Below the pieces are notes generated by a model. That model worked only from the letters and a program-made list of their open reading frames with translations, was not told the origin of the DNA and made no database searches. A program made the position numbers and the translations under genes. From a virus (lineage: Duplodnaviria > Caudoviricetes), in the IMG/VR virus record IMGVR_UViG_3300037067_007515, positions 5,202 through 69,201 of that record: 64,000 bases of DNA; one strand, written 5' to 3'. The first letter of the stretch is position 1, and each line of letters opens with the position of its first letter. Below are positions 1 through 64,000 of this stretch, piece by piece.

Positions 1-922
1 CCGGGGTCTTCTTCTGGGTGAGGTCGTCCTTGATGCGGACCAGGGCCTCGACGGTCTTGGCCTCGTGGATGCGGTTGCGGATGGATATCCGCTCGCCGTC
101 GCTCGTCACCCGCGCTTGCGTGAGCGCGATGATCTCGTCGATTACCTCCTGCTGATCGTCGGGGCGCTTCTTGGGTCTCGGGGGAGGAGGGGGGTCTTCC
201 GGCGGGTCCTCGGGAGGGGCTTCGGGCTCCTCCGCCGGATGAGCTACCGGCTCGGCGTGCCTGCGCGGAGCGGTCCTTGCGGTCCCGGGCTTGCCGGAGG
301 CTACGCTGTCGTCGTCTTCGTCTGCGGAAACGATGCCGAAGGCGTCACAGAGCGCGTATCTCTTGGCGTAGGTAAGAGCGCTCGCCACCTTCTGCGCCGC
401 GTTCATGTAGGCTTTGGGGTCGATAGGGATCGTGAATTCCGTGACCTCGGTGTGCCCCTCCCGGTGGTGGGCCTCGCAGATGGCGGTTACCGAGGTCGCG
501 TCCTGCCTCGTCTTGATGGTGTACGAGAAGCCACAGTCCTCGAGGGGCTTCTGGATCGCCTTAACGATGGCGTCGATGGGGGCGAAGCGGTAGCGCAGGT
601 CCCCGTTGCCGTCTTTAACCTCCCGCGTCTTGATGATCGCCGGGCACTGCGATTGGAAGCGCGACAGATCTGCGAAGTAGGCTTCCTTCGCCTGTTCGGC
701 CTTCAACTCCCTGCGCATCGCCAGGAGCCGCTCCATGGATTCGAGCGGGAGCCCCTTGTTGATGGCCATCGCGATGAGCCCTTCGGCCCCTACGGGGACG
801 AGGGCTGTCGACTCGGCGGGGCCTTCGGTCTTCTTCTTGGGCGCGGTCGGCCTCTTGCCCTTGACCGGCCTGGGGTGGGGATCGTCCTCCACGACGGCCT
901 CTACGGTTTCTACTGGGTCCAT
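1..922 (-). CDS. erf: ERF-family single-strand annealing protein with a C-terminal extension shared with the Sak4 protein (3' partial)
   Basis: Manual translation MDPVETVE...YRFAPIDAIVKAIQKPL...QKVASALTYAKRYALCDAFGIVSADEDDD matches the ERF motif (A/G)xxxTYxxRYxLxxxxGIxxxDEDD. Absent from the ORF track because the stop lies outside the window. Confidence 0.85.
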   Translation of the reverse strand, partial: MDPVETVEAVVEDDPHPRPVKGKRPTAPKKKTEGPAESTALVPVGAEGLIAMAINKGLPLESMERLLAMRRELKAEQAKEAYFADLSRFQSQCPAIIKTREVKDGNGDLRYRFAPIDAIVKAIQKPLEDCGFSYTIKTRQDATSVTAICEAHHREGHTEVTEFTIPIDPKAYMNAAQKVASALTYAKRYALCDAFGIVSADEDDDSVASGKPGTARTAPRRHAEPVAHPAEEPEAPPEDPPEDPPPPPRPKKRPDDQQEVIDEIIALTQARVTSDGERISIRNRIHEAKTVEALVRIKDDLTQKKTP

Positions 923-933
923 GGCATCCCCTT

Positions 934-1209
934 TCAGAACGGGACCGATTCGGCGCGAACCGGCTTGGGCATGTTCTCGAGGCGCTCCCGGACCTGCGCC
1001 CACTGGCGCACCGCACACTCGATGTCCGCGAGGGTCGTCGTTCCGGCGAGAAGCGGGACTAGGTCGCCGTCGCGATCAGCCAGCTGAATCGAGTAGATGT
1101 CGAGATGGGGAATAGTGATGTCCTGCGATAGGTCGGGCTGAGTGACGGACGCGCGCACGATTACGCGGGTGTCCCTTACCAAGAGTTTCAGTTCGATGAT
1201 TGCCGCCAT
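934..1209 (-). CDS. Conserved hypothetical protein (91 aa)
   Basis: Homologue at 46880-47152; GAAAGGAG SD upstream. Confidence 0.7.
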   Translation of the reverse strand: MAAIIELKLLVRDTRVIVRASVTQPDLSQDITIPHLDIYSIQLADRDGDLVPLLAGTTTLADIECAVRQWAQVRERLENMPKPVRAESVPF

Positions 1210-1233
1210 ACGGGTCTCCTTTCGCGTGACGGG

Positions 1234-1434
1234 TCAGGCGGATCGCGACGGCGATCCGGGCTTCGGCAGACGTACCTCCTTTCTCTCCCGGTGGCTGAGT
1301 GGGCCCGAATGGGTTGGGGCGGTCCGGCGCGGGTTGCGCGCGGAGTGCCAGAGGACGAGGAAGCGCCAGAACGGGACGTCAGGTTTCAGGCGCAGATATG
1401 CGGTAGCAGAGCGCTCGACCTCAGAATCGGTCAT
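1234..1434 (-). CDS. Conserved small hypothetical protein (MTDSEVERS...)
   Basis: Near-identical homologue at 47177-47377; ATGA overlap with the upstream gene. Confidence 0.6.
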   Translation of the reverse strand: MTDSEVERSATAYLRLKPDVPFWRFLVLWHSARNPRRTAPTHSGPLSHRERKEVRLPKPGSPSRSA

Positions 1435-1682
1435 CTCGCGGCCTCCCGGGCCCTCGCCAGGATGCCCCCAGAGGCCTCTGTTTGTACAACCACGGGGTTT
1501 TCCCCCTGGCGCGCGGGGAATGTGTCGGCTGTCGGCTTCTGGGGCGGTTTTCGGATACGGGCCATGTGGGCGCGGACGGCGTAGCGGATGAGGTTCTGGA
1601 CCGTCCGGAGTTCCCGATCCGCCTGGGCCTCGATGGCGGCGAGCTCGTCGGGCGGGAACGTGATGTGGATGGGCTTGCTCAT
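1431..1682 (-). CDS. Ribbon-helix-helix (Arc/CopG-like) DNA-binding protein
   Basis: MSKPIHITFPPDELAAIEAQADRELRTVQNLIRYAVRAHM has the RHH beta-alpha-alpha pattern; homologue at 47374-47625. Confidence 0.75.
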   Translation of the reverse strand: MSKPIHITFPPDELAAIEAQADRELRTVQNLIRYAVRAHMARIRKPPQKPTADTFPARQGENPVVVQTEASGGILARAREAAR

Positions 1683-2131
1683 GCCACGACCCCGGAGTGC
1701 CCGTTGTGTCGGGCATCGGTGGCCTCCGTGTTCTCGGGCATCCACCGGCCCACAAACGACGGGTAGTAGTCGTCCGTGTTCTCGGTGCCCACTTCCAGGA
1801 TGACGTTCCCGTTCGGGAGCAGCCTCAATTCGAGCACGTCATCGGTGCCGCTATACGTCCCCTTCGTGCGCAAAACACCCAGGACCTTTATGGGCTCGAA
1901 GGTGTTCTTGATCGGGTTTGCCTTCTGCACGACCAAGCTGCTCATCATGGAGCGGTAGCCATCGCTCGGGTCTTCGATTGCACAGTACACAATCCCGTCC
2001 AGCCGGAAACGGAACATCTGGCAGTCCTTGAAATGCCCTTGGTACTGCTCCACGGAGCCCGATTCCATGTCCACGCCCGACAGCTTGTGCAGTCCGACGA
2101 GACTCGCCAGTTCGACAGTCGTGTCAGCCAC
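1679..2131 (-). CDS. Phage hypothetical protein (150 aa), inserted relative to the other copy
   Basis: Coupled overlaps to both neighbours; absent at the equivalent position 47622-47645. Confidence 0.75.
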   Translation of the reverse strand: MADTTVELASLVGLHKLSGVDMESGSVEQYQGHFKDCQMFRFRLDGIVYCAIEDPSDGYRSMMSSLVVQKANPIKNTFEPIKVLGVLRTKGTYSGTDDVLELRLLPNGNVILEVGTENTDDYYPSFVGRWMPENTEATDARHNGHSGVVA

Positions 2132-2327
2132 GGGATTCCTCCTTCGGCGGACCCGCCAAGGAAGTCTGCCGCTCGAGGTACTCGCGTACCGCGCGCTGGA
2201 TGACCCAGCCCTTCTTGCGGCCCTCGCGCTGGCAGTAGTCCCGGAGCGCCTTGTGGTCGGCCTCGGAGAATGGGACGTATGCCTGCGTGCGGCCGGCGGT
2301 CGGTCTCTTGCGGATCGATTGTGCCAT
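2124..2327 (-). CDS. Ribbon-helix-helix transcriptional regulator, probably leaderless
   Basis: MAQSIRKRPTAGRTQAYVPFSEADHKALRDYCQREGRKKGWVIQRAVREYLERQ; ATG lies 6 nt after a -10 box; homologue at 47622-47804. Confidence 0.75.
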   Translation of the reverse strand: MAQSIRKRPTAGRTQAYVPFSEADHKALRDYCQREGRKKGWVIQRAVREYLERQTSLAGPPKEESRG

Positions 2328-2333
2328 GGGGAG

Positions 2334-2363
2334 ACTATAGGACGGAAAGAGAACGGCTGTCAA
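2334..2363 (-). promoter_or_regulatory. Sigma70-type early promoter TTGACA-N18-TATAGT with an upstream A-tract
   Basis: Consensus boxes, conserved at 47811-47840. Confidence 0.75.
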
Positions 2364-2394
2364 TAGGGGCGATCACTTTTTTTTCAGGCTCATA

Positions 2395-2423
2395 TTGTCG
2401 TTCCGCGCGGGCCTCGGTAGATT
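2395..2423 (+). promoter_or_regulatory. Sigma70-type promoter TTGTCG-N17-TAGATT for the lipoprotein moron
   Basis: Both hexamers and the 17-nt spacing are conserved at 47871-47899 while the spacer sequence has diverged; GGAGG SD follows. Confidence 0.7.
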
Positions 2424-2440
2424 CTGGATAGGAGGATGCG

Positions 2441-2788
2441 ATGAAGAAGTGGACTCCTGTCGTCGTGCTCTTTGCGCTATGGCTGGCCGCGTGCACCGAT
2501 CTGCTCCCCGACGAGGACAGGCTGGTCGGTTGCTGGGAGATGGACCTCGGTTCCCATAAGGCGTACTTCTCCTTTGGATCGCAGTCCGACGGCGGGGATG
2601 TCCTGTACTACGTCGACAACTTCTCCGTCACGGACCTCGGGGCATGGGCCATCGAAGATGGGCTCCTGTCGATTATCTGGAGCGAGGAGTTCGGCGTTGA
2701 CTTCGCCTACGAGTTCGTTGATGCCAACACGCTGCACCTTGTCCGGGATAGCGGAACGGCGCGCGTTCTGCTGCTCACACGGGTGTAA
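2441..2788 (+). CDS. Lipoprotein (moron), small beta-rich, possibly lipocalin-like
   Basis: MKK + hydrophobic stretch + lipobox LAAC; one of only two credible plus-strand genes; own promoter, SD and downstream hairpin. Confidence 0.8.
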   Translation: MKKWTPVVVLFALWLAACTDLLPDEDRLVGCWEMDLGSHKAYFSFGSQSDGGDVLYYVDNFSVTDLGAWAIEDGLLSIIWSEEFGVDFAYEFVDANTLHLVRDSGTARVLLLTRV

Positions 2789-2809
2789 GGCCGGGCCCGC
2801 AGACAGCAA

Positions 2810-2835
2810 GGGCCGCCCCCTTTCGAGAGCGGCCC
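2810..2835. terminator. GC-rich hairpin between the convergent moron and lysis genes, putative bidirectional terminator
   Basis: GGGCCGC...GCGGCCC stem conserved at 48565-48590 with a different loop; no strong U-tract. Confidence 0.5.
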
Positions 2836-2864
2836 CGTTACTCCTCCTGCACCCGGCAGGCGAG

Positions 2865-3416
2865 CTACCCCGGAACGAGCAGGCCCAGCAGGAAACCAAG
2901 CGCCAGCGCTGCCGCGGATCCCGCCAAGGCTCCGATCCGCCACGCACGGACCCTGCGGTCAGTCGCCAGGATCCGCGCATCCACCTGGCGCGAGTAGTCG
3001 TCGTGCTGCGTCAAGAGCGCGTTGTAGGTGTCCGTCAGCCTGCGCAACTCCTGCCGCAGCGTCGCCAACTCCGACGAGAGCCTCCCCAGAGAGTCGTCGA
3101 GCTCCGTCGAGTGCTCCCGCCAGAGCTGTAGCTGCGCGCTCAGCCTCGAGACGCGCTGCGTGCTCTCTCTCAAGAGTTGTCCTTGCTCGGTCAAGCTCGC
3201 TTGCGAGTCCGTCAGCGCGCGCGCTGATACTGCCAAGCTCTGCCGCGCCAGCAGCATGTCCGCGACGATACTCTGCAGCAGCTCGGTCTCGCTCTCCGTC
3301 AGCGCGGGCAGTAGCGCCGGCGAGAAGATCGAGAGTAGGACGCAAGCGCAGAAGAGCAACCGCGCCCGCGCCGATCGCGGCCCCGAGGATGAGAGAGGCG
3401 ATGATCGACAGTACAC
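2865..3416 (-). CDS. Signal peptide + coiled coil + C-terminal TM protein overlapping the Rz-like gene (spanin-like partner); start uncertain
   Basis: Hydrophobic N-terminus, heptad-rich middle, C-terminal WRIGALAG...LLVPG; counterpart at 48620-49048 also ends in PG-stop. Confidence 0.6.
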   Translation of the reverse strand: MYCRSSPLSSSGPRSARARLLFCACVLLSIFSPALLPALTESETELLQSIVADMLLARQSLAVSARALTDSQASLTEQGQLLRESTQRVSRLSAQLQLWREHSTELDDSLGRLSSELATLRQELRRLTDTYNALLTQHDDYSRQVDARILATDRRVRAWRIGALAGSAAALALGFLLGLLVPG

Positions 3417-3423
3417 GCTTCAC
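2959..3423 (-). CDS. Rz/i-spanin-like protein (N-terminal TM + coiled coil)
   Basis: GTG start overlaps the holin stop; VKRVLSIIASLILGAAIGAGAVALL TM followed by an Ala/Glu/Arg helix. Confidence 0.55.
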   Translation of the reverse strand: MKRVLSIIASLILGAAIGAGAVALLRLRPTLDLLAGATARADGERDRAAAEYRRGHAAGAAELGSISARADGLASELDRARTTLEREHAARLEAERAATALAGALDGARRLSGEALVGVGDAAAGVAQADGHLQRALDAARRLLAPGGCADPGD

Positions 3424-3764
3424 CCCCCCGCCCCCGCCGCGACGGCCGTGAGCGCGGCGATCCCGCTCTGCCAGGCGAAGCCGCGGGAGAAGGCGGCGCT
3501 GCACCTGCGGCGGATCGCCTCCCGCGTGTTTCGCTGCTCCGGCGTCCCCTCGCGATCGGAGCGGACGGCGAGCACGATAGCGATGATCGAGGCTCCCAGG
3601 AGGCGCACGAGGTCAGGCCAGCCGAACGCGGGCAGCGTGCCCTGCATGGCCATCGCGAGGACCGCCGGCCAGAGGATAGAGCCCACGACGCCGGCGAGAG
3701 TCGCGCCCCAGACGGCGATGTCGTCATAGATGCGACGCCAGAGACGCTTGAGCTTGCCCATCAT
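3420..3764 (-). CDS. Holin-like membrane protein
   Basis: 2-3 TM segments, directly downstream of the endolysin with an overlapping start/stop. Confidence 0.55.
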   Translation of the reverse strand: MMGKLKRLWRRIYDDIAVWGATLAGVVGSILWPAVLAMAMQGTLPAFGWPDLVRLLGASIIAIVLAVRSDREGTPEQRNTREAIRRRCSAAFSRGFAWQSGIAALTAVAAGAGG

Positions 3765-4324
3765 ACCAGCCTTTCCGGGTCCGGTCGCTCCGCGTACGGC
3801 GTGAGCGTCCACCCCCGATGGATCTCCCAGTGCACATGCGACCCCGTCGAGTATCCGGCGTTGCCTACGGCGCCGATCACCTCGCCGCGCTCTACCCTCT
3901 GCGGCCACGCGAACGTGTGGTGGATACCGACAGGCCACCTCGCGTCCTCCGGCTGCTCCTGGTAGGCCCAGACGATCCCGCGCGTAGCGTCCAGGAGCTG
4001 GCGGATGTAGGAGTGGCAGAGGAGATGCACGCCGTCTGCTCCGTCCAGGACGGTGACAGCTCCGTAGACGTCGTGGGCGTAGTCGCCCCACGGTAGGCGC
4101 GGCATGGGGCCGTCGCGGAGCATCCACTTCCAGCTCCCGCCGGTCGGTGGGCGGAGGATGTAGAAGCGGTAGACGGTCCCAGCCTGGGGGGCGAGCAGGG
4201 GAGTCCCGACGGGCGCGGAGATGTCGAGGGCCCCGTGGATGTGCTCGCCCGGATTCGAGAGCGGCCGCGGGTCGGCCCAGCGTGAGGAGATCGTCCCCGT
4301 CGCGGGGAGGATGCATGCGCTCAT
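3761..4324 (-). CDS. M23-family peptidase endolysin
   Basis: HGALD (HxxxD) and HVH (HxH) zinc motifs; VERGEVIGAVGNAGYSTGSHVHWEI is typical of M23. Confidence 0.9.
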   Translation of the reverse strand: MSACILPATGTISSRWADPRPLSNPGEHIHGALDISAPVGTPLLAPQAGTVYRFYILRPPTGGSWKWMLRDGPMPRLPWGDYAHDVYGAVTVLDGADGVHLLCHSYIRQLLDATRGIVWAYQEQPEDARWPVGIHHTFAWPQRVERGEVIGAVGNAGYSTGSHVHWEIHRGWTLTPYAERPDPERLV

Positions 4325-4617
4325 TGCTTTCCTTTCTGGCTGATCGCCGCGCCGGAGAGGTAGGCCATCATCTCGGCGCGGCTCTCGCGGATGGTCTCCC
4401 GCAGGCTCGCGAGCTTTCCGTTGGCTCCGGCGCACTCGGCCAACACGAGGAGCGCGTCGAAAGTGGCGACCTGGCCGAGGATGAGCATGGGGATCGCGGC
4501 CTCGAGGCGCGTGGTGCGCTTCGGGACGCGAGCAGTAACGATGGCCCAGCGGCAGACCACGGCGCCGGTCCCGGTTGCGGCTGCGATGGCGACGCCAATC
4601 AAGATGTCTTTGAGCAC
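4321..4617 (-). CDS. Small membrane protein of the lysis region
   Basis: N-terminal TM; positional counterpart of 50164-50511. Confidence 0.55.
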   Translation of the reverse strand: MLKDILIGVAIAAATGTGAVVCRWAIVTARVPKRTTRLEAAIPMLILGQVATFDALLVLAECAGANGKLASLRETIRESRAEMMAYLSGAAISQKGKQ

Positions 4618-4931
4618 GTGCCCTCCTTGGCTTTCGCGACCTCGGCTGCCGCGTTCAACACCTTACGTACTTCCTCCCCTACGTCCTTGCCCTCGGCCGC
4701 CGCGAGGAGGATATCGGGGAGCGCCGCCTGTATCGCCGCGCGCTTGGCGGCGCGGGCCTCGGCCTCTGCGTCCACCTCGGGCGCTCGGATCTGCGCTTTT
4801 CCGTCGACGATCGTCACGGTCTCACCGGGCTCGGGAAACCGCTCAATCTCGTACCACCCATCTCCCGGGCACTCGTTCGCGCGCACCCCATGCGACTCGC
4901 TCGCTGAAAGCCTCTGGTACCACAGCTTCAT
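4599..4931 (-). CDS. Probable tail fibre assembly chaperone
   Basis: Follows the tail fibre with an ATGA overlap; homologue at 50508-50822. Confidence 0.55.
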   Translation of the reverse strand: MKLWYQRLSASESHGVRANECPGDGWYEIERFPEPGETVTIVDGKAQIRAPEVDAEAEARAAKRAAIQAALPDILLAAAEGKDVGEEVRKVLNAAAEVAKAKEGTCSKTS

Positions 4932-6997
4932 ATGAGCACCCCCGCGAGATATAGCTGGACTCCGTTTGAGACCTGGCCCGATGCGGTATCCATTCCGGAA
5001 GCGGCACCCTGCATCTGCCAGACGACGTATGGGGCTCCGCCGTACCACACGACAGGGATCAGGGCTTGGAGCCAATTGATCGAGTGCAGCGAGACACCTG
5101 CTACTTCCATCCTTTCGCGGAGGCCCCCTGCGTAGTTGTAACTCCCAACTGATCCGTAGGCTGTACCGTATCTGAGCGTTACAGTCCGATCTGCTCCCAC
5201 CTTCCCCTTCGCGGTCGCGATCGTCATATACAGGTACGCCGAGCAGAGTACGCCCTTGACGTTAGTCATGCCGGGCGGTAGGTGCGCAGCCAAGGCGGTG
5301 TTCTGCACGGAACCTGTGAGGTTGGTGGTCTCTGCGGCCGCCGTAGAGGTGTAGATGATCGAGTCTGCCGCGAAGTAGTCCGCGGCATCCCTCCAAATGA
5401 GATGCCCGCCATAGATCATGTCCGCCAGGATCGGCGCGGTGGGGATGTCGTGGATGATCTTCCCCGCGGCGTCGCGCGCGAGCAGGCCCTCAGCGGGCGA
5501 GATGCCGATGTAGCGGCCGTAGTCGTCGCCGATGCCGATGTTGGCGTTGTGGAGCCTGATCCCGTAGCGGTTGATGCGGACGCTCTGGTACTTGTTCGTC
5601 ACCTCCGACGTGTCGTACCAGGGGACGGCGTTGGTGTAGTGGGTGGCAGAGGTGTCCTCGACGGAGGGCTGATAGAGGAAATCGCAGAGGAGACTGTTGC
5701 AGGCGTAGCCGCTGACCAGGCCGCCGATGTAGAGGTAGTTCCCCGCAAAGGCGAAGGCGGCGCATGACCCGGCCGCTGCCGTATCAGTCTGCGCGACGCC
5801 GTCAACGTACATGCTGACGGCGTCGTTTCCCAGGTCCCAGACGACCTTGATGTGCTGCCAGACCTGGAGGGCGGCGTTGGCGGTGAATGCCGATGTACTG
5901 TACACGTACCTGTAGTTGCTGCCGTCAAGCGTTGCCCGCACCACCCACTTGTCGTTCGTAGCATGGTAAGAGAGACTGATCTGTCCCGAGGCGCCACTCC
6001 CGCCGAGACGCCAGACGTATTTGTCGCCCGTGCTGTCGTAGGAGAACAACGGGCGGACCCACAGATCAATGGTGCCTTTCGTTGCAGGGGCGAGAGGGTA
6101 CCGCGCGCTGCCAACTGGCCGACTTGTCGGAGTGAACGGCGCCAGGAATGCAGCGTCCGACACCATGACTGCCCCGGCGTAGGCGTAGTCTGTGGCGGCC
6201 TCGTTGAGGTCCGGATAGATCAGAACCGCGTTCGTGTTGCCGGTGTTGACGGAGGCCGCGCGGAACCTGACAACAGCGAAGTCCCCGTAGAAGTCCACCC
6301 GATCGTCGGTGGCACCATTCCCGGCCGTGTAGGTCGAATCAGTCCACTTGATGTCGATGGAGCCCCGTACGGCCGAGGCGGAGAAGTCATAGAGGGCAAC
6401 ACGGGTCAGATCGGCAGCCGCGCTAGCGTTGCCTTTGCAGACTATCGCTCTCACAAGCGGGGTTGCGGTGGTAACGGCCGCGTCCTGACGAATGTAGGCT
6501 CCGCTCGTCGAGGCGCAGATGAGCTTCGTCAGCGGATGCCCTGCGAACACCTTTGCGCTCGCCTCTGCGGTGCAGTTGACCAGTGTCCACGCGGTCGTCG
6601 TAAGGTCCTCGGGATCGGTGACCAGGTTCGGCGTCGCGCCGAAGCAACCGATCGTGCCGCGCCCCGCGAACTTGGCGAGCGCGTTGTCGTACTCCGTGCC
6701 GACCTCGTCGTAGAGGTGCCCGGGCTCGTAGGTGATCTCCTTCGCGCTGGGCTTGCGGCCGAGAGAGGAGACGCAGTCCGGCTGCGAGAGGTCGAAGAGC
6801 TCGGAGGCGGCGGGGATCGGGTCGAGCCCTCGCAACACGCTGTTGCCGAGCGTCACGACTTCGTTGTGGGCTACCAGCGCGTCGATGGCGGAGAAGATCC
6901 GCGAGAACTGGGGACCGATCACCCGCCCCGTTACCTCGATGTCCTGGAAGCGTCCGAAGACGCCGTCGCTTTCCTGGCTCGTCACGCGCGTCGGCAT
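4928..6997 (-). CDS. Tail fibre / receptor-binding protein with a LamG (concanavalin-like) domain
   Basis: Start MPTRVTSQ overlaps the upstream stop; LamG-like GTIDLWVRP...WQHIKVVWD...MYVDGV...LYIGG; homologue at 50832-52937. Confidence 0.75.
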   Translation of the reverse strand: MPTRVTSQESDGVFGRFQDIEVTGRVIGPQFSRIFSAIDALVAHNEVVTLGNSVLRGLDPIPAASELFDLSQPDCVSSLGRKPSAKEITYEPGHLYDEVGTEYDNALAKFAGRGTIGCFGATPNLVTDPEDLTTTAWTLVNCTAEASAKVFAGHPLTKLICASTSGAYIRQDAAVTTATPLVRAIVCKGNASAAADLTRVALYDFSASAVRGSIDIKWTDSTYTAGNGATDDRVDFYGDFAVVRFRAASVNTGNTNAVLIYPDLNEAATDYAYAGAVMVSDAAFLAPFTPTSRPVGSARYPLAPATKGTIDLWVRPLFSYDSTGDKYVWRLGGSGASGQISLSYHATNDKWVVRATLDGSNYRYVYSTSAFTANAALQVWQHIKVVWDLGNDAVSMYVDGVAQTDTAAAGSCAAFAFAGNYLYIGGLVSGYACNSLLCDFLYQPSVEDTSATHYTNAVPWYDTSEVTNKYQSVRINRYGIRLHNANIGIGDDYGRYIGISPAEGLLARDAAGKIIHDIPTAPILADMIYGGHLIWRDAADYFAADSIIYTSTAAAETTNLTGSVQNTALAAHLPPGMTNVKGVLCSAYLYMTIATAKGKVGADRTVTLRYGTAYGSVGSYNYAGGLRERMEVAGVSLHSINWLQALIPVVWYGGAPYVVWQMQGAASGMDTASGQVSNGVQLYLAGVLI

Positions 6998-9900
6998 CAG
7001 TCCTCCCTGTCCTCCGGCGGCCCTCCGATGAGCCACCACGCATCGCCCTCGGTGAAGGCGCGGATTATCCGCTGCACGGGCACCGCTCCTCCGAATCCCA
7101 GGAGCCGGAGAGCCGATGGAGCCGCATTGATCGCCGCTTTCAGAAGGCCTTCGGTGTCGCCCTCCTGCGCCTCCTTCACGATCTTCGCTCCCCTTTGGAT
7201 GGTCTCGGCGATGGGGGCCTTCAGCGTGCTTCCGTAGAGGGTCGATCCGTAGGCCGGCTTTCCCGCCACCGTCGAAACGAGGACATCCCCGACGAAAGGG
7301 GACGGGGCAAGGAACTGCGATACGATATCCTCCGCGATCTCCTTCTCGTCCTTGGGCAGGCGTTTACGGTCGATGGCGCCCATGATGATCCCGGTTATCG
7401 CGAAGGCCCCTCCGAGACGCACGGCCCACATGACCTTTTTCAGGGCCGCGAGCTCCCGGTTCTTCATTGCCGTGGGAAGATCGTGCCAGAGCATGTTGTA
7501 CATCTGGTTTAGCTGGTTCCCGAACAGCACGAGCCACTTTCCGGTCGGGCTCTTCTGAATGGACGTGAGGTCCTTCGTCTTGCCCTGGGGCTGCGTCCGG
7601 AGCGTGGCGTCCTTTGCGGCAGCGGTTGCGGCGGCTTCCTTGGTGGCCGCATCGCCCTCGGTCGTGGCGTAGACGTGGTCGTACACCCCTTTCCATCCGA
7701 TCAGGGCGGTGCCGAGATCGAACTGCTCGAGGGCCCACACGCCGAGCATGTTCGCGCGGTCCGCGAATCGCTTGGTCTTGTTCCACTGGCGGAGGTGCAT
7801 CTCCTCGAACTCGGGGTGCGCGACACGGTCCGCTATCTGAGGATCGTGAGATGTCACGAAGTCGTAGAGCTTCCGGCTACCGAAAAGCCACTGCGCCTGC
7901 GCGGAGTAGAGCCTGCCCGCGTTCGCGTACGGGAGGTAGAGCCACTTGGCGAACGTCGGCCAGTTCCTGGCGTAGCTGGTGAGATTCCAGGCGATCCCGC
8001 TCACCGTGACGTTCCCGCGAATCCGCTCGGATAGCTTGATGACTGGGTCCCACTCGTGGGAGTGCTTCGGGTTGGCTACGTCTGCGATGTACTGCTTGAC
8101 AATCCTGGCCATGTCCTCCCCGTGAGCCCGTACGATCTCCCTGAGTACCGTGGGGCGGGTGTAGACGTAGTTCATGTTCTCCACAACCTCCTGGTAGGCC
8201 AGGAGGTGCTCGTGCTTCTCGATCGCGTCGAGCGCTATCGCGAAAGCATTCAGGCTGATCTTCTTCGTGCTCTTCACTCGGCTGATCGAGCTTCCCTTGT
8301 TCACCCTACCTCTTCTTATTCCGGACCGGCCCGCGATGTCGTCGAGGATCTGCTCCTCGTGCTTCTCATAGAGCGCACCCTGGACTACGGTTGGGAAGTA
8401 CTTCTTCACCTCTTCCGTGTCCGAGTTGAGGTACTCAACGCAGAAGTCCAGGAAGCGATCCTTGTCCTTGCCCTCGAAGAGGGACATGAGGAAGTCGCCC
8501 ATCTGTTTCTGCTTCGGGGATAGCGAGCCAATGAGGATCGCCGCGCTCCTGTCGTTGATGCCGGTCTCGCCCATGAGGTGGCGCTTCGTGTCCTCGTTCT
8601 GCATGTAGATGTACACCGCGAGTGCTTGGTTCTTGTTGTAGACGTCCTCCCCTACCTTCACGAGGCGGAAGAAGTCGCGGGGTTTCAGCCCGAGCTCCTT
8701 CATCTTGGCCGGGATCTGCATCTTCCGCCGCAGGACGTTCACAACCTTCTCGTCCTCTGCGGCGTTCACGGCGCCTACCAAGAGTCGGGAGTTCGGTCCG
8801 TTCGGCTGGCCTCCATCAAGGATCTCCGCCAATCGGTTCGGGCGGGTGTTGATGAGGTCAAGGAGTGCGAGCTTTCCGGTCTCCACGGCTGTCGCGTACG
8901 ACTCGCTTCCGGTGCCGGTGGGCAGCGTCTTCTTCGGCTTCACGCTCGATAGCACCGGCAGGACGTCGTTCCAGAGGGCTTCCTTCTGGCGCATCCTCTC
9001 GTACTTCTTGCGGCCGAGAGCCTGGCGCCCCGCGGTCCGGAGGTCGTTTACCTCCTTCTGGTAGGCCTCGAGCTCCTCCACGGTCATGTCGCGCACGAGG
9101 CGCTGGTCGATGATCCTCTGCGCCTCCGCGGGTAGAGCCTTGCCGGGGTTCGCGTTCTTCCATGCCTGGAGCTTGTCGCGGAGTTGCTGGTGGGCGGTGA
9201 TGTCCTTCACCACGAGGCGGTCCTGCATCGCGCGGACTTCCCGGGCCTTGGCGACGGTCATGCCCTTCCCTGGCTTGCGCATGATCGACTTGATGAGGCG
9301 GTCGGCGTGCGCCTTTGTCTGCACGGCCTCCCGGTAGTCCTTCATGCGCTGCTTCTGTGCCGCGAGGGTAGCGGCTGCCTTCTCCTTCGTCGTTGCGAGC
9401 TTCGCCGCGGCCTTGTCGCGTTCCTCCCGGCGCGCCGCTATGACCGCTTTCTTCCCTTCGCGCTCGGCCTGGGCCAGGGCCGTCTCCGCCTGCTTGACCG
9501 TGGCCTCCTGGGCGGCCTGTTCCTCGGCGATCTGGGCGAGGAGGTCACGGGTCGTGGCCTTGGCGGTGATCTGCTCCGCTCCCGCACGCTCGGCGATCTC
9601 CTTCGCCTTCATGGTGGCGACGTCGGCGCGGAGCTGCTCTCGGAGGGTGCCGAGCTCCTGGCGGGAGGCGAGCTTCTCTATCTCGCCTATCTTCTTGGTG
9701 AGGAGCGCGTTCTGTCGGCGGAGCTCGCGGTTGGCTTCCTTCGCCTGCTCTATCGCCGCGGCGTCGGGGTCCGTCTCCTGCTCGCGGGCGATCTGGTCGG
9801 CCGCGGCCTCGTCTCCCAGGACCTGCGCGATGACGGCGCGGTACTTCGTGGGGTTGTCGCGGAGCTGCGCGAGGAGCTTGGCGCGGTGGGCATCGGAGAT

Positions 9901-12900
9901 CCCCTTGGGAGCCTTGTCGACGGCGGCCTTGAAGAGGTTGTGCACGTCCATCGTCGGGAGCTTGGGCTGGTCGCCCTCGGCCTCCCAGAGCTCGAGGAGG
10001 AGAGCATCGATCCCCTCGGGTGTCTCGATGCTTGCGAGGAACCGGGCGTTCTCGCGCGCGCGGCTCGGGGCTGCGGTCTGCGCGGTCTCCCACTCCTTGC
10101 GGATCTCCTCCTCGGGCTTTGGCTCGAGGCTCATGGCCTGCTCGAAGGCGACGTACTCCTCGGGGTCTGAGAAGGTTCGCGCTGACTCGTAGGCGGACTC
10201 CTGGTCCTCCTGCGTGTTGAAGAGGGTCTGCCCCCGCATGACGCTCTCGCGCATCTCGGGGGTGATGGGGAGGGAGTGGACGGTTGCCGCGTCGAGCGAG
10301 GTATCGCCTACCGCGGCTCCCCACTTCTTCCCGTACTTGTTGGCGAAGTCGACGAGCATCTTGTCGTAGAAGCCCTTCATGCCCTCGCCGCCCACCTTCA
10401 GATCGAGGCCCTCGAACGCCCCGCCTCCGCGCTCTACGATGCGCTGGGCCATCTCCTTTCCCACGATGTCCGATAGTTGGTTCTCGGGTATGTCCTCTTT
10501 CTCCAGAACGACGGTGCCTTCCTCCGTCCTGGCCTGCAAGGCCCAGGCGCCATCTTCTTGTTTGCCCGCGTCGAGGCGCGCTATCTGCTTGCTGAGGTCG
10601 TACCGCGCCGCCTGCTGCTCTCCCGTGGTCCACGCTACGGAGTCGAAGCCGTTCTCTGCCGCCCACCGGAGCATCCGCTTGAAGGCGAGCTCCGGCCAGG
10701 TCTTCGAGAAGGGAGCCGAAGGTACACGGGCACTCCGAAACTTGTCGTCAACAAAGGCCTGCGCTTTAGCTATGGCTTCCTCTTCCGATGGGCCGTAGAG
10801 CGCCTCAAAGGTCACGTGTTTACCCGATTCATCTATAGGCCAATACCATCCCGGCGGGAGATTCGATCCGACTTTGCTTTCTATTCCCGCGACCCTTGGA
10901 GGCGTGTCTGTGCTGTACCCCTTCTCCCTACCCGCTTGGTGCCAGTCGCTCTGGATCTCCTCCACGAAGAGCACGCGCTTGCCCTCGGCGTCGGTGCGCT
11001 CGTCGAAGCGCATGTGCACGAGCACGTTCTCTTCACCCCAGTGGGGGCTCGAATAGCTTACGGGGCGAGCCTCCCATTTAGCGCTAGCGGCTATGGTCTC
11101 CAGCGCGTTCGCAATGGCCCGTTCTTGGGTGGCTCCTGCGTTGCCGACGAGAGAACCGTCAGCCCTTACGACGGCCCACGGACGTCCTTCTTTCGCCTGA
11201 TAGGAATCGGGCGACAGTTTCTTCGTCGACATGCCTTCGGGAAGGGTAGTAACGGCAGATGTTTTTCTGGCGCCAAGTTCCGGGACGGTGATTAGTAGCT
11301 CGCGATAGTTCTCGCCGCCCGGGAGCACGTACCCCTCGAACTTGGTCTCCCCGGCCTCGAGGCCCATGCCGGGCTTGCCCTTCTCTACCTCCACGAGGGT
11401 GACGGCGTTCTCGGCAAGGTACTGCTGGACTTCGGCTGGGGTGAGCTTGCGATCCTCCGCGAGGAACTCGTCAAGCCCAGTCCACTTCAACTCATCCGGC
11501 TTCACCCCGGCGTTCGCGAGCATGGAACGGAGGGCCGAAGCCTGCATCGGCCCCTTCATCTTCTCCTCTACGGTTCGCGCCGATTTGAGGTAGAATGCAT
11601 CGCGGTCGCCGACGTTGAACAGGGTGTCGGTCTCCGCTTCTACGGAAGCCTCTGCGCCTTGCGTGGTCTGGGCGCCAAGCACGGAGTCGAACACCTTCCG
11701 CGTCTCCTCCGGGATCAGGTCCGCGTACTGCGTGCGGGCCCCGCGGAGGAGCTCGGCGAGCTCGCCCATGAGCGGCCGCATCTCCGTGTGTTCGGTCTCG
11801 CCAGTCTGGTAGAAGCGGATCATCGCCTCCGAGAAGCGCTCCTCTGCCTGCACCCCGGTGCCGAAGGTAGCCTGCACCTTGGCGCTCTCCTCCTCCGAGA
11901 GGTGGCGGCCGAAGACGTGGACGAACTCGTGCACAAGCGCCTTGAAGTCCGTCTGCTCCACGGCGTGGATGATCGCGCGCCCATCCTCGAGGAACTGCAC
12001 GGCGGCATTCGCTCCCGGCTGCTGCGCGACCGTAGCCTCTGCCTGCTCGCGGGATGCGAACACCCCCGGCGCGAAGGTCTGCGCGACGTAGTCGGCGGTG
12101 CTCTTGCCCTCGCGCTTGGCGCGGAAGTCCACCACGAGCCCCGCGGCCGTGGTCTCGCGCTCGGTGAACTGCGGTAGGTTCGCGCGGATAGCCTCGCGGA
12201 TGTCGGCGCCGAAGGGAGCGGCCGGCACCTGGGGAGCGGTCGGGAGAGTCTGCTCCTGCGAGCGTACGCCGTAGCGCTGCTGCGCCGCGACCACCTCGTC
12301 CTTCATCTCGGCGAGGTCGAGGATCTCGTTGACCTGGTCCGCGGAGATCTCCGGGGAGCTGTCGATTGCCGCTATCCTTGCGTCGAGCGCGGTCTGGACG
12401 GTGCTCGCGTGCTCCTCGAGCTTCGCAAGGGGAGCGGAGAGGTCGGGAGCTACAGCGGCCTCCGTGTCGGCCTCCTCCTGAGCGCGGAGGATGTCCTGGA
12501 TCTCCGTCTGCGAAGCCGCGATCTTGTCGCGGATCGTCTGTACCTCTGACACCTTGGGGGCGCCCGTCACGGACTCCTGCGTTATTCCCGGGGCCACGGC
12601 CTGGGCCGAGCGCTGGGCGATGTTGCTCGTTACCGTCGCCGCAACCGGGAGGGCCCCGGTCAGCATCATGGCGGGGAGGAACTGCTCGGTCATCGCGGCC
12701 AGTCGGTCGCTTAATACGGTTTCCCCCAGAACCTCCTTGTTGACCCACGCCTGCATCTCCGGTGGAAGCGAACTGGCCGGGAGGCCGAGAACCTTATCGT
12801 GCATCTCCTTGCCGAGTTCGGTACCGAGCCACGTCGTTACTTCCTGCGCCACCTCCTGGCCCATGTTCCCGGCGACACTCCCCGCGTACTTCGCCGCGAG

Positions 12901-13956: not shown

Positions 13957-13962
13957 GGCGCG

Positions 13963-16677: not shown

Positions 16678-16685
16678 GCTCTCCC

Positions 16686-20881: not shown

Positions 20882-20935
20882 CTACGTCCCTTCCTGTGAA
20901 GCAGGGCGGGCCCCGAAGAGCCCGCCCGTCTTGCT

Positions 20936-21683: not shown

Positions 21684-21694
21684 GCCTTCCCCCT

Positions 21695-43496: not shown

Positions 43497-43513
43497 GACC
43501 TGCCTCCTTCGGA

Positions 43514-43596
43514 TGGGTAGGGGAGGACTCGAACCTCCGGGGTTTCTACTGTCACGGCTTTACAGGCCGCTTCCTTCGCCGCTTGGATACCTACCC
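43514..43596 (-). tRNA. trnY: tRNA-Tyr (GTA), long variable region, no encoded CCA
   Basis: GGGTAGG/CCTACCC acceptor, TCC/GGA D-stem, GCGGC-CTGTAAA-GCCGT anticodon arm, GGAGG-TTCGAGT-CCTCC T-arm, A73. Confidence 0.88.
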
Positions 43597-43791
43597 AGAA
43601 AGAAAGGGGGCGTGCGGGACCCGTCGCCCGCCGAGCCGCGCGGAAAGGAGTAAAGCGCACGGCGCCGCCCCCAAAGAATGAACAGGCGAGCATCGCTACA
43701 AGGGAGCCGACGATCACCGCGGCGGACAGGGCCGCGAGCCCCACCACCGCGACACCTAGGACCGTCAGCTCTCCCGCGAGCTCGCCCGGAT

Positions 43792-47625: not shown

Positions 47626-47804
47626 GCCACGACCCCGGCGTTCTGCCGCTCGAGGTACTCGCGCACCGCGCGCTGGATGACCCAACCCTTCTTGCGCCCC
47701 TCGCGTTGGCAGTAATCCCTGAGCGCCTTGTGGTCGGCCTCGGAGAATGGGACGTATGCCTGCGTGCGTCCGGCGGCCGGTCTCTTGCGGATCGATTGTG
47801 CCAT
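47622..47804 (-). CDS. Ribbon-helix-helix regulator, probably leaderless
   Basis: Homologue at 2124-2327. Confidence 0.75.
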   Translation of the reverse strand: MAQSIRKRPAAGRTQAYVPFSEADHKALRDYCQREGRKKGWVIQRAVREYLERQNAGVVA

Positions 47805-47810
47805 GGGGAG

Positions 47811-47840
47811 ACTATAGGACGGAAAGAGAACGACTGTCAA
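47811..47840 (-). promoter_or_regulatory. Sigma70-type early promoter TTGACA-N18-TATAGT
   Basis: Conserved with 2334-2363. Confidence 0.75.
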
Positions 47841-47870
47841 TAGGGGCGGTCACTTTTTTTCAGGCTCATA

Positions 47871-47899
47871 TTGTCGAGCCGCCCGGGGCGCGGTAGATT
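47871..47899 (+). promoter_or_regulatory. Moron promoter TTGTCG-N17-TAGATT
   Basis: Conserved boxes with 2395-2423. Confidence 0.7.
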
Positions 47900-47916
47900 C
47901 TGTGTAGGAGGACGTG

Positions 47917-48555
47917 ATGCGTAAGTACGGTCTCTTTCTGGTCCTGGTCGCGAGTCTCTGCGTCGCCGCGTGCGATCCCTCTACGCCCACGGAGGCGTAC
48001 TCCGTCTCTCTGGTCGCCTCCGAGCACGGAGGGGTAACCCTCTCGCCGGAAGAGGATTCGTACGGCTATTACCGGCTGGTAGTGGCGATGGCAACGCCCG
48101 CGGCCGGCTATGTGTTCTCGGCGTGGGCCGGCGACATCTCCGGCACCACCAACCCCACGCACTTCAGAGTCGAATCCGACATGAACGTCGGCGCCGTCTT
48201 CGCGGAGCTGCTTCCCTCTCCCCTTATTATGTCCTCGATCCGCCTCGGGACCGACATCGACGGAGCCGACTGCGTTATTGCGCGCTTCCGGAACGACGAT
48301 ACCGTCAGGACCGTTGACGCTTTCCGTTTCTGGGTCGAGATCCTGGACGACTCCGGAGATCCGATCCTCTTCGATGGCTCCCCCTACTTTGTCGGCGAAC
48401 TCACTCCGGCATGGATTCGACCGGGGGCCGAGCTCGTCGAGACATCGTGGACCCTGGGCGGGTCCGGAGTCCCCGACAGCATCGGCGACAGCGGGCTCAG
48501 TTGGATCGCCTTCGACGACGGCACCGAGTGGGAAGACGCCCTCCACAATCCGTGA
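47917..48555 (+). CDS. Lipoprotein (moron) with an InlB B-repeat-like domain and a second Ig-like domain
   Basis: Lipobox VAAC; YSVSL...GGVTLSP...ATPAAGYVFSAWAGD B-repeat pattern; C-terminal FDDGTEW. Confidence 0.8.
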   Translation: MRKYGLFLVLVASLCVAACDPSTPTEAYSVSLVASEHGGVTLSPEEDSYGYYRLVVAMATPAAGYVFSAWAGDISGTTNPTHFRVESDMNVGAVFAELLPSPLIMSSIRLGTDIDGADCVIARFRNDDTVRTVDAFRFWVEILDDSGDPILFDGSPYFVGELTPAWIRPGAELVETSWTLGGSGVPDSIGDSGLSWIAFDDGTEWEDALHNP

Positions 48556-49461: not shown

Positions 49462-49533
49462 TTGCAGGGGCGGGGATCGAACCCGCGGCCTCCAGCTTAT
49501 GAGGCTGGCGAGCTACCGCTGCTCTACCCTGCG
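49462..49533 (-). tRNA. trnM: tRNA-Met (CAT), initiator-like acceptor and D arms with an atypical anticodon stem; no encoded CCA
   Basis: CGCAGGG/CCCTGCA (C1:A72), GAGC/GCTC D-stem, CCAGC-CTCATAA-GCTGG, GCGGG-TTCGATC-CCCGC, A73. Confidence 0.9.
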
Positions 49534-60947: not shown

Positions 60948-63172
60948 TTGCCCACCTGCGCCGCCTGGGCGGTCAGCTTCTCGTCCAGGATACGGGCGGT
61001 AACCGGATCCGCTCGCCTGTCGTCACTACCGCGCCTCCAGCCGGTGCTATCCTTGTTCCAGTCTTCGAGGCGGAGCTCCGGGGCCGCGGCAGGGGCAGGC
61101 TGCGCGCCCCCCTGCACGGCGGCGCGTTGCTTGACGAGTTCTCGGAACAAATCCCGCAGCTGCGCGTCGTTCCTCTGGTCGCCGGCGGCTTTGAGATCCA
61201 TGATGTAGCGATCTGCCTCGGCCCCGACGATAGAGTCAATGTCGGCGTCTCGCAGTGCCCTTCTCGTGATCCTCATGCGTCTGGCAATTGCCTCGTCCAC
61301 CCATGCCTTGGAGGATTCCGTGAGCGTGCTCGAGGCTGACGCCGCCACGGCGTCAGCCGTTGCAGCTTGCGCGGGTGACGGCGCCGGTGCTGGTTGTGTA
61401 ACCGCTTCCCAGGCCCTGGTCCCGTCGTGCCACGTTGCGAGCTTCTGGAGAACCGCCTCCTTGCCCTCGATGATGAAGCGGTAGAGATCCCCGGCCTCGT
61501 TGTAGAGAAGGGGGATACCCTCGGAGCCGCGGCCCACGCCGTAGTAGCCATTGATGTCCGGCTCGGCCCGGACGAGACCTTCCGTCGGATAGCGTCCCTG
61601 GCCTACCCCGAGCCACTTCTGCGCGAGCTGCTGCAGATACGTCAGATTCTCGGGTTCCGTGGACCGCCAAGTGAATCCCCGCTCCTGTACGTCAAGGAGC
61701 GCCTGTTCTGCGGTGGTGAGGACCTTGGCATCGCCGAAGATCGCCTGAATGTTGACCTTGTTAAACATCCGTTCGAGGTCCTGTCGGGCGATCGGCGTCG
61801 CCAGGGCCTCCGCGGCCCTCCGCATCTCGTCCTCGCTCGCATCCGGATGCGAGCGGTACAGATCCGTCCATCGGGCAACGAGGTCTTCCGTCGCAGTCTG
61901 GGATAGCTTCTTTTCCTTGGCGTAGGCGACGATCCAGGAGGAGGCCTCCTTGTAGGCCACGCTGGAACTCGGGTCGACGAAGTCTTTGTAGAGCTTCTGC
62001 AGGTCTGATCCGGTGATTCGATAGTCGATGACGTTTCCCTGCGGATCCTTCACGACGTTGTACTCGTCGATCATCTTCCGTAGTTTCTGCGGTTGGACCC
62101 CATCGGCCTGGGCCTGTACGAGCTGTGTAAGAAGGAGGCTCGCGTTCGCCTTCTGCCAATCGTCGTGGATCCCCTTGTCCACCGGGAGGGGTTTGGTCAG
62201 GAAGGTCACCCGATCGTTCCATCGGTCTTGCCAGTACGTCTGGTGTCCGGCGATCCGGAACTGCGCTTCGGGGAGCTTCTTGATGGCGCCGCGGAGAGCG
62301 TCGATGTTGTCGTAATTGGCGAGATCAAAGTCCTCGAGAGTGCGGTTCTGCTCGGCGTCGTACTCCTCGTTGATCCGCTTCTGTTCCTGCTGCTCGTACT
62401 CTACTCGTTGGCGGACGACATTCCGGGCCGCTTCGCGCTTCGTCGGATCCAGGTCCCAGAAAGTTGTATTAGAGTCCAGCCAGGCGTCCGCGGCCTGCAT
62501 GTTCCACCCCGCGGCCTTCGCCTGCTCTAACGCGGTCCCCACTGCCCATGCGGATTCGATCTCCCGCTTCACCTTCTCCGAGTAGGCTGCGGCATCGTCG
62601 GCCCGGCGGAGACCTTGGTTGACGTCTGACTGGAGGAGGGCGTCGACTTGCTGCATCCTCTGCTCCGGAGTGAAGTCCGTCTTCTCGGACCAGTAGGTGA
62701 TGTTCTGGTCGCTGTCGGCGATGAGCCGGTGCGTCGTCTCCGTGCTCCAGAGCTCCCAGACCTGGTCATAGTGCTGAACCGAGCGCTGCTCGAGGGCGGA
62801 AAGGAGCTGCTCCTGGGCTGCCTTGTTGCGGAAGTTCTGGCGGATGAAATCCCGCTGGGTACTGATGAGCGCGGCGTGGTCTGCGGTGAGCGACTGCTCG
62901 TCGATCTGGCCCAGGGTGAGCTGCGCTGAGGCTCCGGATTCTCCGGAGACTGACTTTGCTGAGCTCTCCGTATCTGCGGGCTTCGCCCAGCGCTTGTCTT
63001 TCAGGGAGCGGTTGTAGGTAGAGAAGGCGCGGTCCATTGCCGAGAGGCCGGAGGAGTACTGAGAGACGCGGTCGGCTTCGTTGAGGCGCGAGGAGAACGC
63101 GGTCAGGGACTGACTGAGGCTGTCGAGGCTCTCGGCCCACATTCCGGCTACGTTGACGTCGTAGTTACCCAC
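60944..63172 (-). CDS. Internal virion protein, 742 aa
   Basis: N-terminal ~235 aa nearly identical to 13963-16677; remainder unrelated. Confidence 0.7.
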   Translation of the reverse strand: MGNYDVNVAGMWAESLDSLSQSLTAFSSRLNEADRVSQYSSGLSAMDRAFSTYNRSLKDKRWAKPADTESSAKSVSGESGASAQLTLGQIDEQSLTADHAALISTQRDFIRQNFRNKAAQEQLLSALEQRSVQHYDQVWELWSTETTHRLIADSDQNITYWSEKTDFTPEQRMQQVDALLQSDVNQGLRRADDAAAYSEKVKREIESAWAVGTALEQAKAAGWNMQAADAWLDSNTTFWDLDPTKREAARNVVRQRVEYEQQEQKRINEEYDAEQNRTLEDFDLANYDNIDALRGAIKKLPEAQFRIAGHQTYWQDRWNDRVTFLTKPLPVDKGIHDDWQKANASLLLTQLVQAQADGVQPQKLRKMIDEYNVVKDPQGNVIDYRITGSDLQKLYKDFVDPSSSVAYKEASSWIVAYAKEKKLSQTATEDLVARWTDLYRSHPDASEDEMRRAAEALATPIARQDLERMFNKVNIQAIFGDAKVLTTAEQALLDVQERGFTWRSTEPENLTYLQQLAQKWLGVGQGRYPTEGLVRAEPDINGYYGVGRGSEGIPLLYNEAGDLYRFIIEGKEAVLQKLATWHDGTRAWEAVTQPAPAPSPAQAATADAVAASASSTLTESSKAWVDEAIARRMRITRRALRDADIDSIVGAEADRYIMDLKAAGDQRNDAQLRDLFRELVKQRAAVQGGAQPAPAAAPELRLEDWNKDSTGWRRGSDDRRADPVTARILDEKLTAQAAQVGK

Positions 63173-63180
63173 GCTTCCCC

Positions 63181-64000
63181 CTACACCACGGCCTTAGCCG
63201 CCGGGAGTGTGTCGATGAATCCGCTTGCAGCGGACAGGATACTGGAAACCGCTCCGACACCTGCGGCGGCCACGATAGAGCTCCGGTTCGTGACCAGGTT
63301 GGTCTTGTGCCGCTGGGCGTCGGCCAGATTGCGGCGATACTCCTGCGTGAGGATGTCGGCCTGGTCCTGGATGTCCTCCTTCGCCTGTTCGGTCTGGAGG
63401 ATGGCGGTGTTCAAGTCGCGATCAAGCTGCTCGGCCGCAATGCGCGCCTCGTTCTTGATCCGGGCCGCCTCCTGTTTGTACTGGGTATCCTCGGCCTTCT
63501 CCTGGTAGGCGAGCTCTGCCGTCTCCTGCTTCGCCTGCCGCTCGACGTCGGCGGTGCTCGCTTCCAGGTTCTCATAGGTCTGCTTGAACGCGAGCTCCGA
63601 ATCCTCTCGCGTACGCTCGAGCTCCTTGTCCGCGAGAGCGTTGGCCGCCATGACGTCCTCGATGCTCTGCTCGGCTTCGGTCCTGGCCGAGCCAACCTCT
63701 TGCGCGTAGCCCATGGCGGTGGCCTGGACGTTGTAGCGGGCCTCCCGCTCGGCCTCGCGCTGCTCTTCCCGCGCGGCCTTCTCGACCTGGCGAAGGGCGA
63801 GAAGCGGGGATCCAGTTGCGCGGACGGCCGTCGCCGCGAGCCCCGCCCTGGCCTCCCCGGCTTTGAGTGCGGCCTCTTCCTTTGATCCTCCTACCTCGTA
63901 CTCGGCCTGTTGGCCGGCGCGGTTGAGGGTGAGGATCGCCTCGTCCTTGGTCTGGGCCAGGAACTGATCGCGCTTGGCCGTGATCTGGGAGACCTTACGG
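63181..64000 (-). CDS. Internal virion coiled-coil protein (5' partial)
   Basis: Homologue of 16686-17969; frame stays open to the window end. Confidence 0.75.
   Translation of the reverse strand, partial: RKVSQITAKRDQFLAQTKDEAILTLNRAGQQAEYEVGGSKEEAALKAGEARAGLAATAVRATGSPLLALRQVEKAAREEQREAEREARYNVQATAMGYAQEVGSARTEAEQSIEDVMAANALADKELERTREDSELAFKQTYENLEASTADVERQAKQETAELAYQEKAEDTQYKQEAARIKNEARIAAEQLDRDLNTAILQTEQAKEDIQDQADILTQEYRRNLADAQRHKTNLVTNRSSIVAAAGVGAVSSILSAASGFIDTLPAAKAVV

Follow-up and report, generated by a model that had tools for sequence, protein, structure and literature searches.

A 69-kb viral metagenome record best explained as one assembler path through two sibling podophage genomes

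Does a viral record that repeats a third of its own gene order in diverged form represent one DNA molecule, or the genomes of two phages placed end to end by assembly? The window analysed here, 64,000 nt in length, comprises bases 5202-69201 of a linear IMG/VR metagenome contig of 69,201 nt, which is rated 100% complete by CheckV and listed by IMG/VR as one linear virus; in JGI/IMG, all of its proteins are assigned to a single contig of this exact length. The original prediction offered two readings of its head-to-tail organization, a real tandem of related phages or a figure-8 misassembly of two co-occurring genomes. The second fits every test that we ran, whereas we found neither positive evidence for the first nor any machinery to maintain a tandem. 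We conclude that the 69.2-kb record is very probably one path taken by an assembler through a graph of mixed phages, and not one DNA molecule.

Extent of the repeat and layout of the record

Self-BLAST reproduced the predicted colinear tandem blocks (window 3-187/45613-45797, 917-1698/46863-47641 and 2165-2443/47642-47919, with the last at 15929-17505/62424-64000), at 78-93% identity and E-values down to 0, with an offset between copies that drifts from 45.6 to 46.5 kb along the window. The predicted start of the second copy at position 45610 did not hold. When the whole contig is considered, bases 1-22706 are colinear with 43986-69201, such that the repeat reaches 5.2 kb further left, the second copy begins at window 38785 (contig 43986), and the stretch that is single-copy by self-BLAST spans window 17506-38784.

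The copies are far from identical, as had been anticipated. DNA-level alignment covers 7,291 of the 22,706 nt of copy 1 (32%) at a mean identity of 87.7%, and the rest either has no relation to copy 2, including several whole genes, or resembles it in protein sequence alone. When the proteins of the two copies are compared by blastp, the fibre proteins agree at 53% of amino acids and the giant proteins at 24%, the latter over the C-terminus. Of the exact matches that the two copies share, the longest (113 nt) occupies the last bases of the contig, whose end truncates it, and the next-longest measure 91, 87 and 86 nt.

The contig can be divided into a core, which we call S, and two alternative arcs. 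Arc X occupies window 1-17392 (the whole arc being contig 1-22593) and was delimited by self-BLAST and Pfam matches to ERF and Peptidase_M23. Its early genes (E1) include an ERF recombinase, and its late genes (L1) comprise a moron, a lysis module with an M23 endolysin, a fibre, ejection proteins of 2319 and 904 aa, and the C-terminal part of a 427-aa protein. S (17393-38784, minus strand) occurs once in the contig, is common to both arcs, and was recognized by PHROGs matches to portal, major head and tail proteins and TerL. Beginning at the N-terminus of the 427-aa protein, S encodes tail tubular proteins B and A, a T7-type, PF20911-like major capsid protein (21695-22690, minus strand; phrog_212 at 3.7e-83), scaffold/protease, portal, the terminase large subunit TerL (30186-31727, minus strand; phrog_38 at 1e-54) and small genes, and ends with most of a 314-aa protein.

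S opens into the two arcs through a 40-nt node (38785-38824), where an ungapped comparison found contig 43986-44025 to be an exact copy of contig 1-40. Arc Y follows at 38825-63887, as annotated with PHROGs, Pfam, ARAGORN and blastp between the copies. Its early genes (E2) encode HJ-resolvase-like and replication initiator-like proteins, a ParB_N+HTH_ParB protein, tRNA-Tyr, an exonuclease and an AAA_24/Sak4-like protein, and its late genes (L2) comprise a moron, lysis genes, tRNA-Met, a fibre, ejection proteins of 2669 and 742 aa, and the C-terminal part of a homologue of the 427-aa protein. The window closes with the re-entry of arc Y into S (63888-64000), a terminal 113 nt that are 100% identical to window 17393-17505.

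Contig ends, relatives and independent assemblies

Both ends of the contig fall at borders of the shared stretch, the last 113 nt being the entry to S and the first 40 nt its exit. An independently assembled ENA contig (L093) carries the copy identity past the contig end, at least 2,446 nt into S: it joins S 19951-17506 (2,446 nt, 100%) directly to arc Y 64000-62239 (1,762 nt, 100%), and in a recovered chimeric protein (P0036) the N-terminus is exactly that encoded in S and the C-terminus exactly that encoded in Y. From the identical terminal 113 nt, their continuation into S and the identity of the first 40 nt with the S exit, two overlapping circles can therefore be drawn, genome X at contig 1-43985 (43,985 nt) and genome Y at contig 22594-69088 (46,495 nt). 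A real X-Y tandem with identical copies of S would be expected to produce k-mer adjacencies and contig ends no different from these. Since the 40-nt and 113-nt overlaps match k-1 of no single usual k, we claim no specific assembler or k.

The sizes of the two circles match the genomes of relatives. Ten MCP relatives have genomes of 40.6-45.7 kb, including two, of 42.8 and 43.2 kb, that are closed by DTRs; the record is clearly longer than all ten, and 69 kb thus corresponds to about 1.5 genomes.

Sequences from both arcs, and from further variants, were present in other assemblies. In one Logan run (SRR18595300), the X moron and a lysis gene of Y occur together. Pieces of arc X that are 100% identical to the record were found at window 2340-6080 (L088) and contig 1675-5381/5246 (L090/L091), as short separate contigs with breaks at variant junctions, and a further short separate contig lies within S (L089). 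For the 742-aa gene, L093 ends in a third allele. Alternative alleles also exist within S, namely a TerL variant with 91% nucleotide identity on separate JGI contigs (TerL'; P0026, L092), a variant of a 152-aa protein with 5 changes, and a protein 57% identical to the 314-aa protein (P0039). All three reside on one 9,791-nt JGI contig, which apparently derives from the same sample as the record. At least a third variant is present in related samples, with a third allele at several junctions, and an alternative TerL-side half of S is among the variants.

Other searches returned little. A metagenome scan matched only one 1.6-kb contig (L087), 25 kb of the unit had no megablast match in the GenBank phage or PLSDB plasmid collections, and exact-protein look-ups with the 314-aa and 427-aa proteins, TerL and P0008 retrieved nothing beyond their own record. 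TerL' had no match in IMG/VR, no X-type version of the 314-aa protein was found, either full-length or partial, and the S-to-E1 adjacency that closes circle X occurred in none of the public contigs searched.

These observations fit a scheme in which two or more sibling podophages would co-occur, with a head-tail module of T7 type and an identical structural core S. One would carry the 22.6-kb arc X (E1|L1) where the other carries the 25.2-kb arc Y (E2|L2), and the TerL-side half of S probably differs between them as well. Assembly would have started in arc X just past the short node leaving S, passed through S once, left via arc Y, and stopped 113 nt into S on re-entry, S having already been used. 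We infer that repeat resolution produced this path, so that the record would consist of two overlapping genomes, either circular or with terminal redundancy. Both assembler concatenation (PMC8116208) and variant graphs with shared unitigs (PMC10104058) are documented for phage contigs.

Physical linkage, prophage and single-genome readings

Could X and Y nevertheless have been joined in one molecule? Co-infection by the siblings may have produced a real hetero-concatemer or recombination intermediate in which the two are linked head to tail through S. The occurrence of both arcs in the same run is compatible with this, as are the recombinases encoded by each sibling (ERF in X, AAA_24/Sak4-like in Y) together with the exonuclease. 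Moreover, a 100%-identical S flanked by arcs at 85-93% identity shows that the lineages have recombined. However, such intermediates would form a small minority of the DNA in a sample, which an assembler has no means to favour, the contig ends exactly at the repeat borders, as a graph walk predicts, and a T7-type capsid lineage with genomes of 40.6-45.7 kb cannot package 69 kb or more. We consider this reading improbable, and slightly more so the specific case of a physical X-Y heterodimer, formed via the 21-kb identical core, that was abundant enough in the community to assemble. If true, it would offer a snapshot of ongoing module exchange between sibling phages.

Even less probable is a tandem double prophage or plasmid-prophage co-integrate, stably maintained in a host. 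Seven of the ten MCP relatives carry tyrosine integrases and two are proviruses, indicating that the wider lineage is often temperate, and arc Y encodes the ParB_N+HTH_ParB protein. Against this, six-frame Pfam searches across the entire contig returned nothing at E<=1 for PF00589, PF00239, PF00717 or PF01381, that is, no integrase, serine recombinase, S24 or HTH_3 domain, bearing out at the Pfam level the predicted absence of integrase and cI. Neither ParA (PF13614, PF01656) nor protelomerase (PF16684) was found in the contig, and ParB is confined to Y. The 69,201-nt contig also contains no host DNA, and the att-like duplication that the original prediction had reported missing is indeed absent from the unit boundaries.

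At those boundaries, self-BLAST delimits a conserved block at 2165-2443 in copy 1 (the boundary itself at ~2330-2440) and at 47642-47919 in copy 2 (~47720-47914). The block covers the beginning of a small conserved minus-strand gene, the first of the early set, together with the divergent intergenic region upstream of the plus-strand moron. Its two copies are 92.8% identical and share at most 55 nt without a mismatch (2301-2355), and the boundaries are promoter regions, not att-like duplications. The X contig of Logan run SRR18595300, assembled at k=31, begins at ~2326, exactly k-1 = 30 nt ahead of the first mismatch between X and Y. We also considered a path that crosses over at the unit boundaries, and judged it unlikely because the longest run shared there is 55 nt.

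An obligate linkage of X and Y is further, if weakly, opposed by JGI sample 3300014205, in which X-type early genes are present and 0/8 Y-type proteins occur on JGI contigs other than the 69,201-nt one; the argument is weak because that assembly is fragmentary. Least probable of all is a single genome of at least 69 kb with a long diverged internal duplication, as the database listing and a mean 21-mer frequency of 1.02 would have it, which we reject given the genome size of the relatives, the closure of the record into two circles of normal size, and the presence inside the duplicated part of early, lysis, fibre and ejection-protein genes in a second complete set.

Consequences and comparison with known systems

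If the record is an assembler path through two siblings, its main implication concerns quality control: what is listed as one 69-kb virus, 100% complete, contains roughly 1.5 genomes drawn from two siblings. In catalogues, such an entry would lead to overestimated genome sizes and spurious gene duplications. The predicted paired comparison of two sibling phages stays valid, with X and Y separable, and the record provides a clean natural example of modular mosaicism that splits into genomes of 44.0 and 46.5 kb. The siblings have exchanged or diverged in their early recombination genes (ERF versus Sak4-like), endolysin type, moron, fibre and giant ejection proteins. The biology of two siblings with a 100%-identical head-tail core is useful but ordinary.

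Three known systems resemble this arrangement. As in T7-type replicative concatemers, whole units stand head to tail, with the junction at the boundary between early promoter and last gene. True T7-type concatemers consist of identical units joined via one copy of the terminal repeat, whereas the units here differ, and no terminal repeat was identified.

A closer likeness is to the concatenated contigs described with CheckV (Nayfach et al. 2020, PMC8116208), which are filtered there on duplicated region and k-mer frequency. Like these, the record is an over-length viral metagenome contig free of host DNA, with a duplicated region (33-36% of the contig) above the >=20% criterion for concatenated contigs. 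It differs in that its copies are diverged siblings, aligning over a third of the arc; because of this divergence the k-mer frequency filter misses it, and at a frequency of 1.02 the usual filters for identical repeats do not flag it.

The record also resembles the graph components of Phables (PMC10104058), in which mosaic variants have common unitigs, here S, and differing ones, here X/Y and S_R versus S'_R. The necklace structure in our case is instead deduced from the contig ends and the independent contigs, and two assembly outcomes can be seen side by side: the MEGAHIT/Logan pieces break at the branches, and the JGI contig threads a single path through them.

Two diverged copies and a single core

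Self-BLAST, run on the window and on the entire contig, reproduced the colinear blocks of the original prediction and confirmed that the record does contain the repeat. Its colinearity stood, but its full length had been underestimated by 5.2 kb, because the repeat runs off the left edge of the window, which holds only bases 5202-69201 of one 69,201-nt contig. Copy 1 (contig 1-22706) is colinear with copy 2 (43986-69201) in patches 78-93% identical, with an offset drifting from 44.0 to 46.5 kb, and a structural core, S (contig 22707-43985; window 17506-38784), is present once in the contig. DNA-level alignment covers just 32% of copy 1, at a mean identity of 87.7%, and several of the remaining genes are alike as proteins only, or unrelated. 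The giant ejection proteins (2319 and 2669 aa) are 24% identical across the C-terminus, and a second pair (904 and 742 aa) has the first 275 aa in common and no more. Because the copies have diverged (mean 21-mer frequency of the record, 1.02), the usual identical-repeat filter misses this record, which is listed in IMG/VR as a linear virus of 69.2 kb with a CheckV completeness of 100%.

Almost every gene lies on the minus strand. Transcription runs leftwards from start boundaries at about window 2330-2440 and 47720-47914, in the order early, head, tail, ejection, fibre and lysis genes, with a single plus-strand moron at the far end. A T7-type head-tail module (TerL, portal, scaffold/protease-like, major head protein, tail tubular A and B; PHROGs) resides in S, and the early region carries HJ-resolvase-like, replication-initiator-like, ParB-like and exonuclease genes. 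The predicted differences in recombinase, endolysin and fibre were borne out, with ERF in copy 1 replaced by AAA_24 (Sak4-like) in copy 2, M23 by a weak C39-like match, and fibres sharing 53% protein identity; ParB_N+HTH_ParB occurs in copy 2 only (Pfam). ARAGORN also called the previously named tRNA-Met (49462-49533), confined to the copy 2 side. A tRNA-Tyr (GTA) pair, absent from the prediction, occupies homologous positions in both early regions (window 43511-43597 (-); 3925-4007 (-) of contig L001). One unit, about 44-46.5 kb long, comprises a full gene set, and ten relatives picked up by way of their capsid protein measure 40.6-45.7 kb, two of them closed by terminal repeats (42.8 and 43.2 kb); the record therefore represents about 1.5 genomes.

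Contig ends and unit boundary

When exact matches between the copies are listed down to a length of 30 nt, the longest (113 nt; window 63888-64000 and 17393-17505) is the contig's terminal 113 nt, followed by matches of 91, 87 and 86 nt. Located at the contig's very last bases, it is cut off by the contig end: inter-copy identity climbs to 100% at the passage from copy 1 into S, and the contig ends at that point. Its first 40 nt are, in turn, an exact copy of contig 43986-44025, the passage from S into copy 2. Given repeats at both ends, the record closes in two ways, into a circle X (contig 1-43985; 43,985 nt) and a circle Y (contig 22594-69088; 46,495 nt), which overlap in S. This geometry looks like a walk through arc X, S and arc Y in a graph where S is shared.

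HMM searches covering the entire contig in all six frames (E<=1), whose positive controls matched in control genomes, returned no tyrosine integrase, serine recombinase, Peptidase_S24, HTH_3, ParA (two families) or protelomerase, and the contig contains no host DNA, extending the earlier description of an integrase-less unit without host DNA to the whole contig. As integrases are present in 7/10 of the capsid-protein relatives, their absence is specific to this phage. Equally, no att-like duplication was found in the unit boundary block (window 2165-2443 and 47642-47919; 92.8% identical), in agreement with the prediction, the longest exact run there being 55 nt. The block comprises a divergent intergenic region and the start of a small first early-operon gene kept in both units (window 2124-2363 (-) and about 47640-47805 (-)); no other part of the repeat is as well conserved. 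The product of this gene resembles, by eye, a ribbon-helix-helix regulator.

Pieces of both siblings in independent assemblies

Exact-protein look-ups retrieved pieces from three other datasets: ERZ27247358, SRR18595300 and JGI metagenome 3300014205. From the first (ENA, MEGAHIT), contigs L088 (window 2340-6080), L089 (window 34869-36677) and L091 (contig 1675-5246) match at 100%, and L086 (window 19957-30315) at 99.865%, with 14 mismatches. The decisive piece is L093, a 4,251-nt contig of the same dataset: its bases 1-2446 equal S (window 19951-17506) and bases 2447-4208 equal arc Y (64000-62239), both without mismatch, and it encodes a protein (P0036) with exactly an S-type N-terminus and a Y-type C-terminus. 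Past the record's end, arc Y therefore enters the very S into which arc X also leads, and on these sequences the siblings have S in common, with 100% identity for 2.4 kb or more. The last 43 nt of L093 (4209-4251, against window 62196-62238) are unlike both X and Y. The change of sequence falls within the gene of the 742-aa ejection protein, some 110 nt beyond the shared 275-aa N-terminus, indicating a third allele of its C-terminal part and a recurrent recombination point at the domain border.

In the Logan run SRR18595300, short contigs carry the moron of X as well as a lysis gene of Y. There, an X contig begins at about window 2326, 30 nt (k-1 for k=31) ahead of the first X/Y mismatch (2356), the position at which a contig should start if co-occurring X and Y part there. 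From 3300014205, L090 matches contig 1675-5381 at 100%, L087 is a 99.75% identical variant of S with a 155-nt deletion (window 36809-36962) and unrelated sequence below 36620, and L092 carries a TerL allele just 91% identical (nt), followed by unrelated sequence.

The core itself varies. A 9,791-nt JGI contig, which we infer to come from the window's own sample, carries three variant proteins (cluster tables): a variant terminase large subunit, TerL' (P0026); a 152-aa variant with 5 changes (P0008); and P0039, 57% identical to residues 76-314 of a 314-aa protein and without a difference over its own first 23 residues. This contig may be the unused alternative branch, S'_R, for the TerL-to-314-aa half of S (S_R). 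The graph would be a necklace of two bubbles, the early and late genes of X versus those of Y, and S_R versus S'_R, set apart by S_L, the shared head-tail half of S, and a short node. Co-occurrence of TerL' with the X-type early genes in 3300014205 hints that S'_R belongs to X. Separately, a gene-poor stretch of S (window 36620-36963), where two independent assemblies break or diverge (L087, as described; L089, ending at 36677), looks like another variant junction. Ten of the 14 L086 mismatches cluster in 230 nt (window 25549-25775), where the portal gene ends and the following gene begins, suggesting a small recombination patch in an otherwise near-identical core.

Tandem molecule or assembly path

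We consider it very probable that the head-to-tail tandem is an assembly path through two mosaic sibling genomes, within a wider population of at least three. Of the two explanations originally offered, the end geometry and L093 favour misassembly, and the physical tandem has gained no positive support. A real hetero-concatemer joining X and Y in one molecule, with identical copies of S, would yield identical short-read adjacencies; it is nevertheless improbable, having no maintenance mechanism, and hetero-concatemers would be a minority DNA species that a T7-type capsid lineage with genomes of 40.6-45.7 kb could not package. As an indirect hint, X-type early genes occur in another JGI sample, whereas 0/8 Y-type proteins occur on any other JGI contig. 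Other rivals to an assembly path rank lower still. The proposed paired comparison of siblings stays valid, its basis being two resolved circles rather than a 69-kb genome. Concatenation of genome copies by assemblers is documented for IMG/VR-type data (PMC8116208), and phage variant graphs with shared unitigs have likewise been described (PMC10104058).
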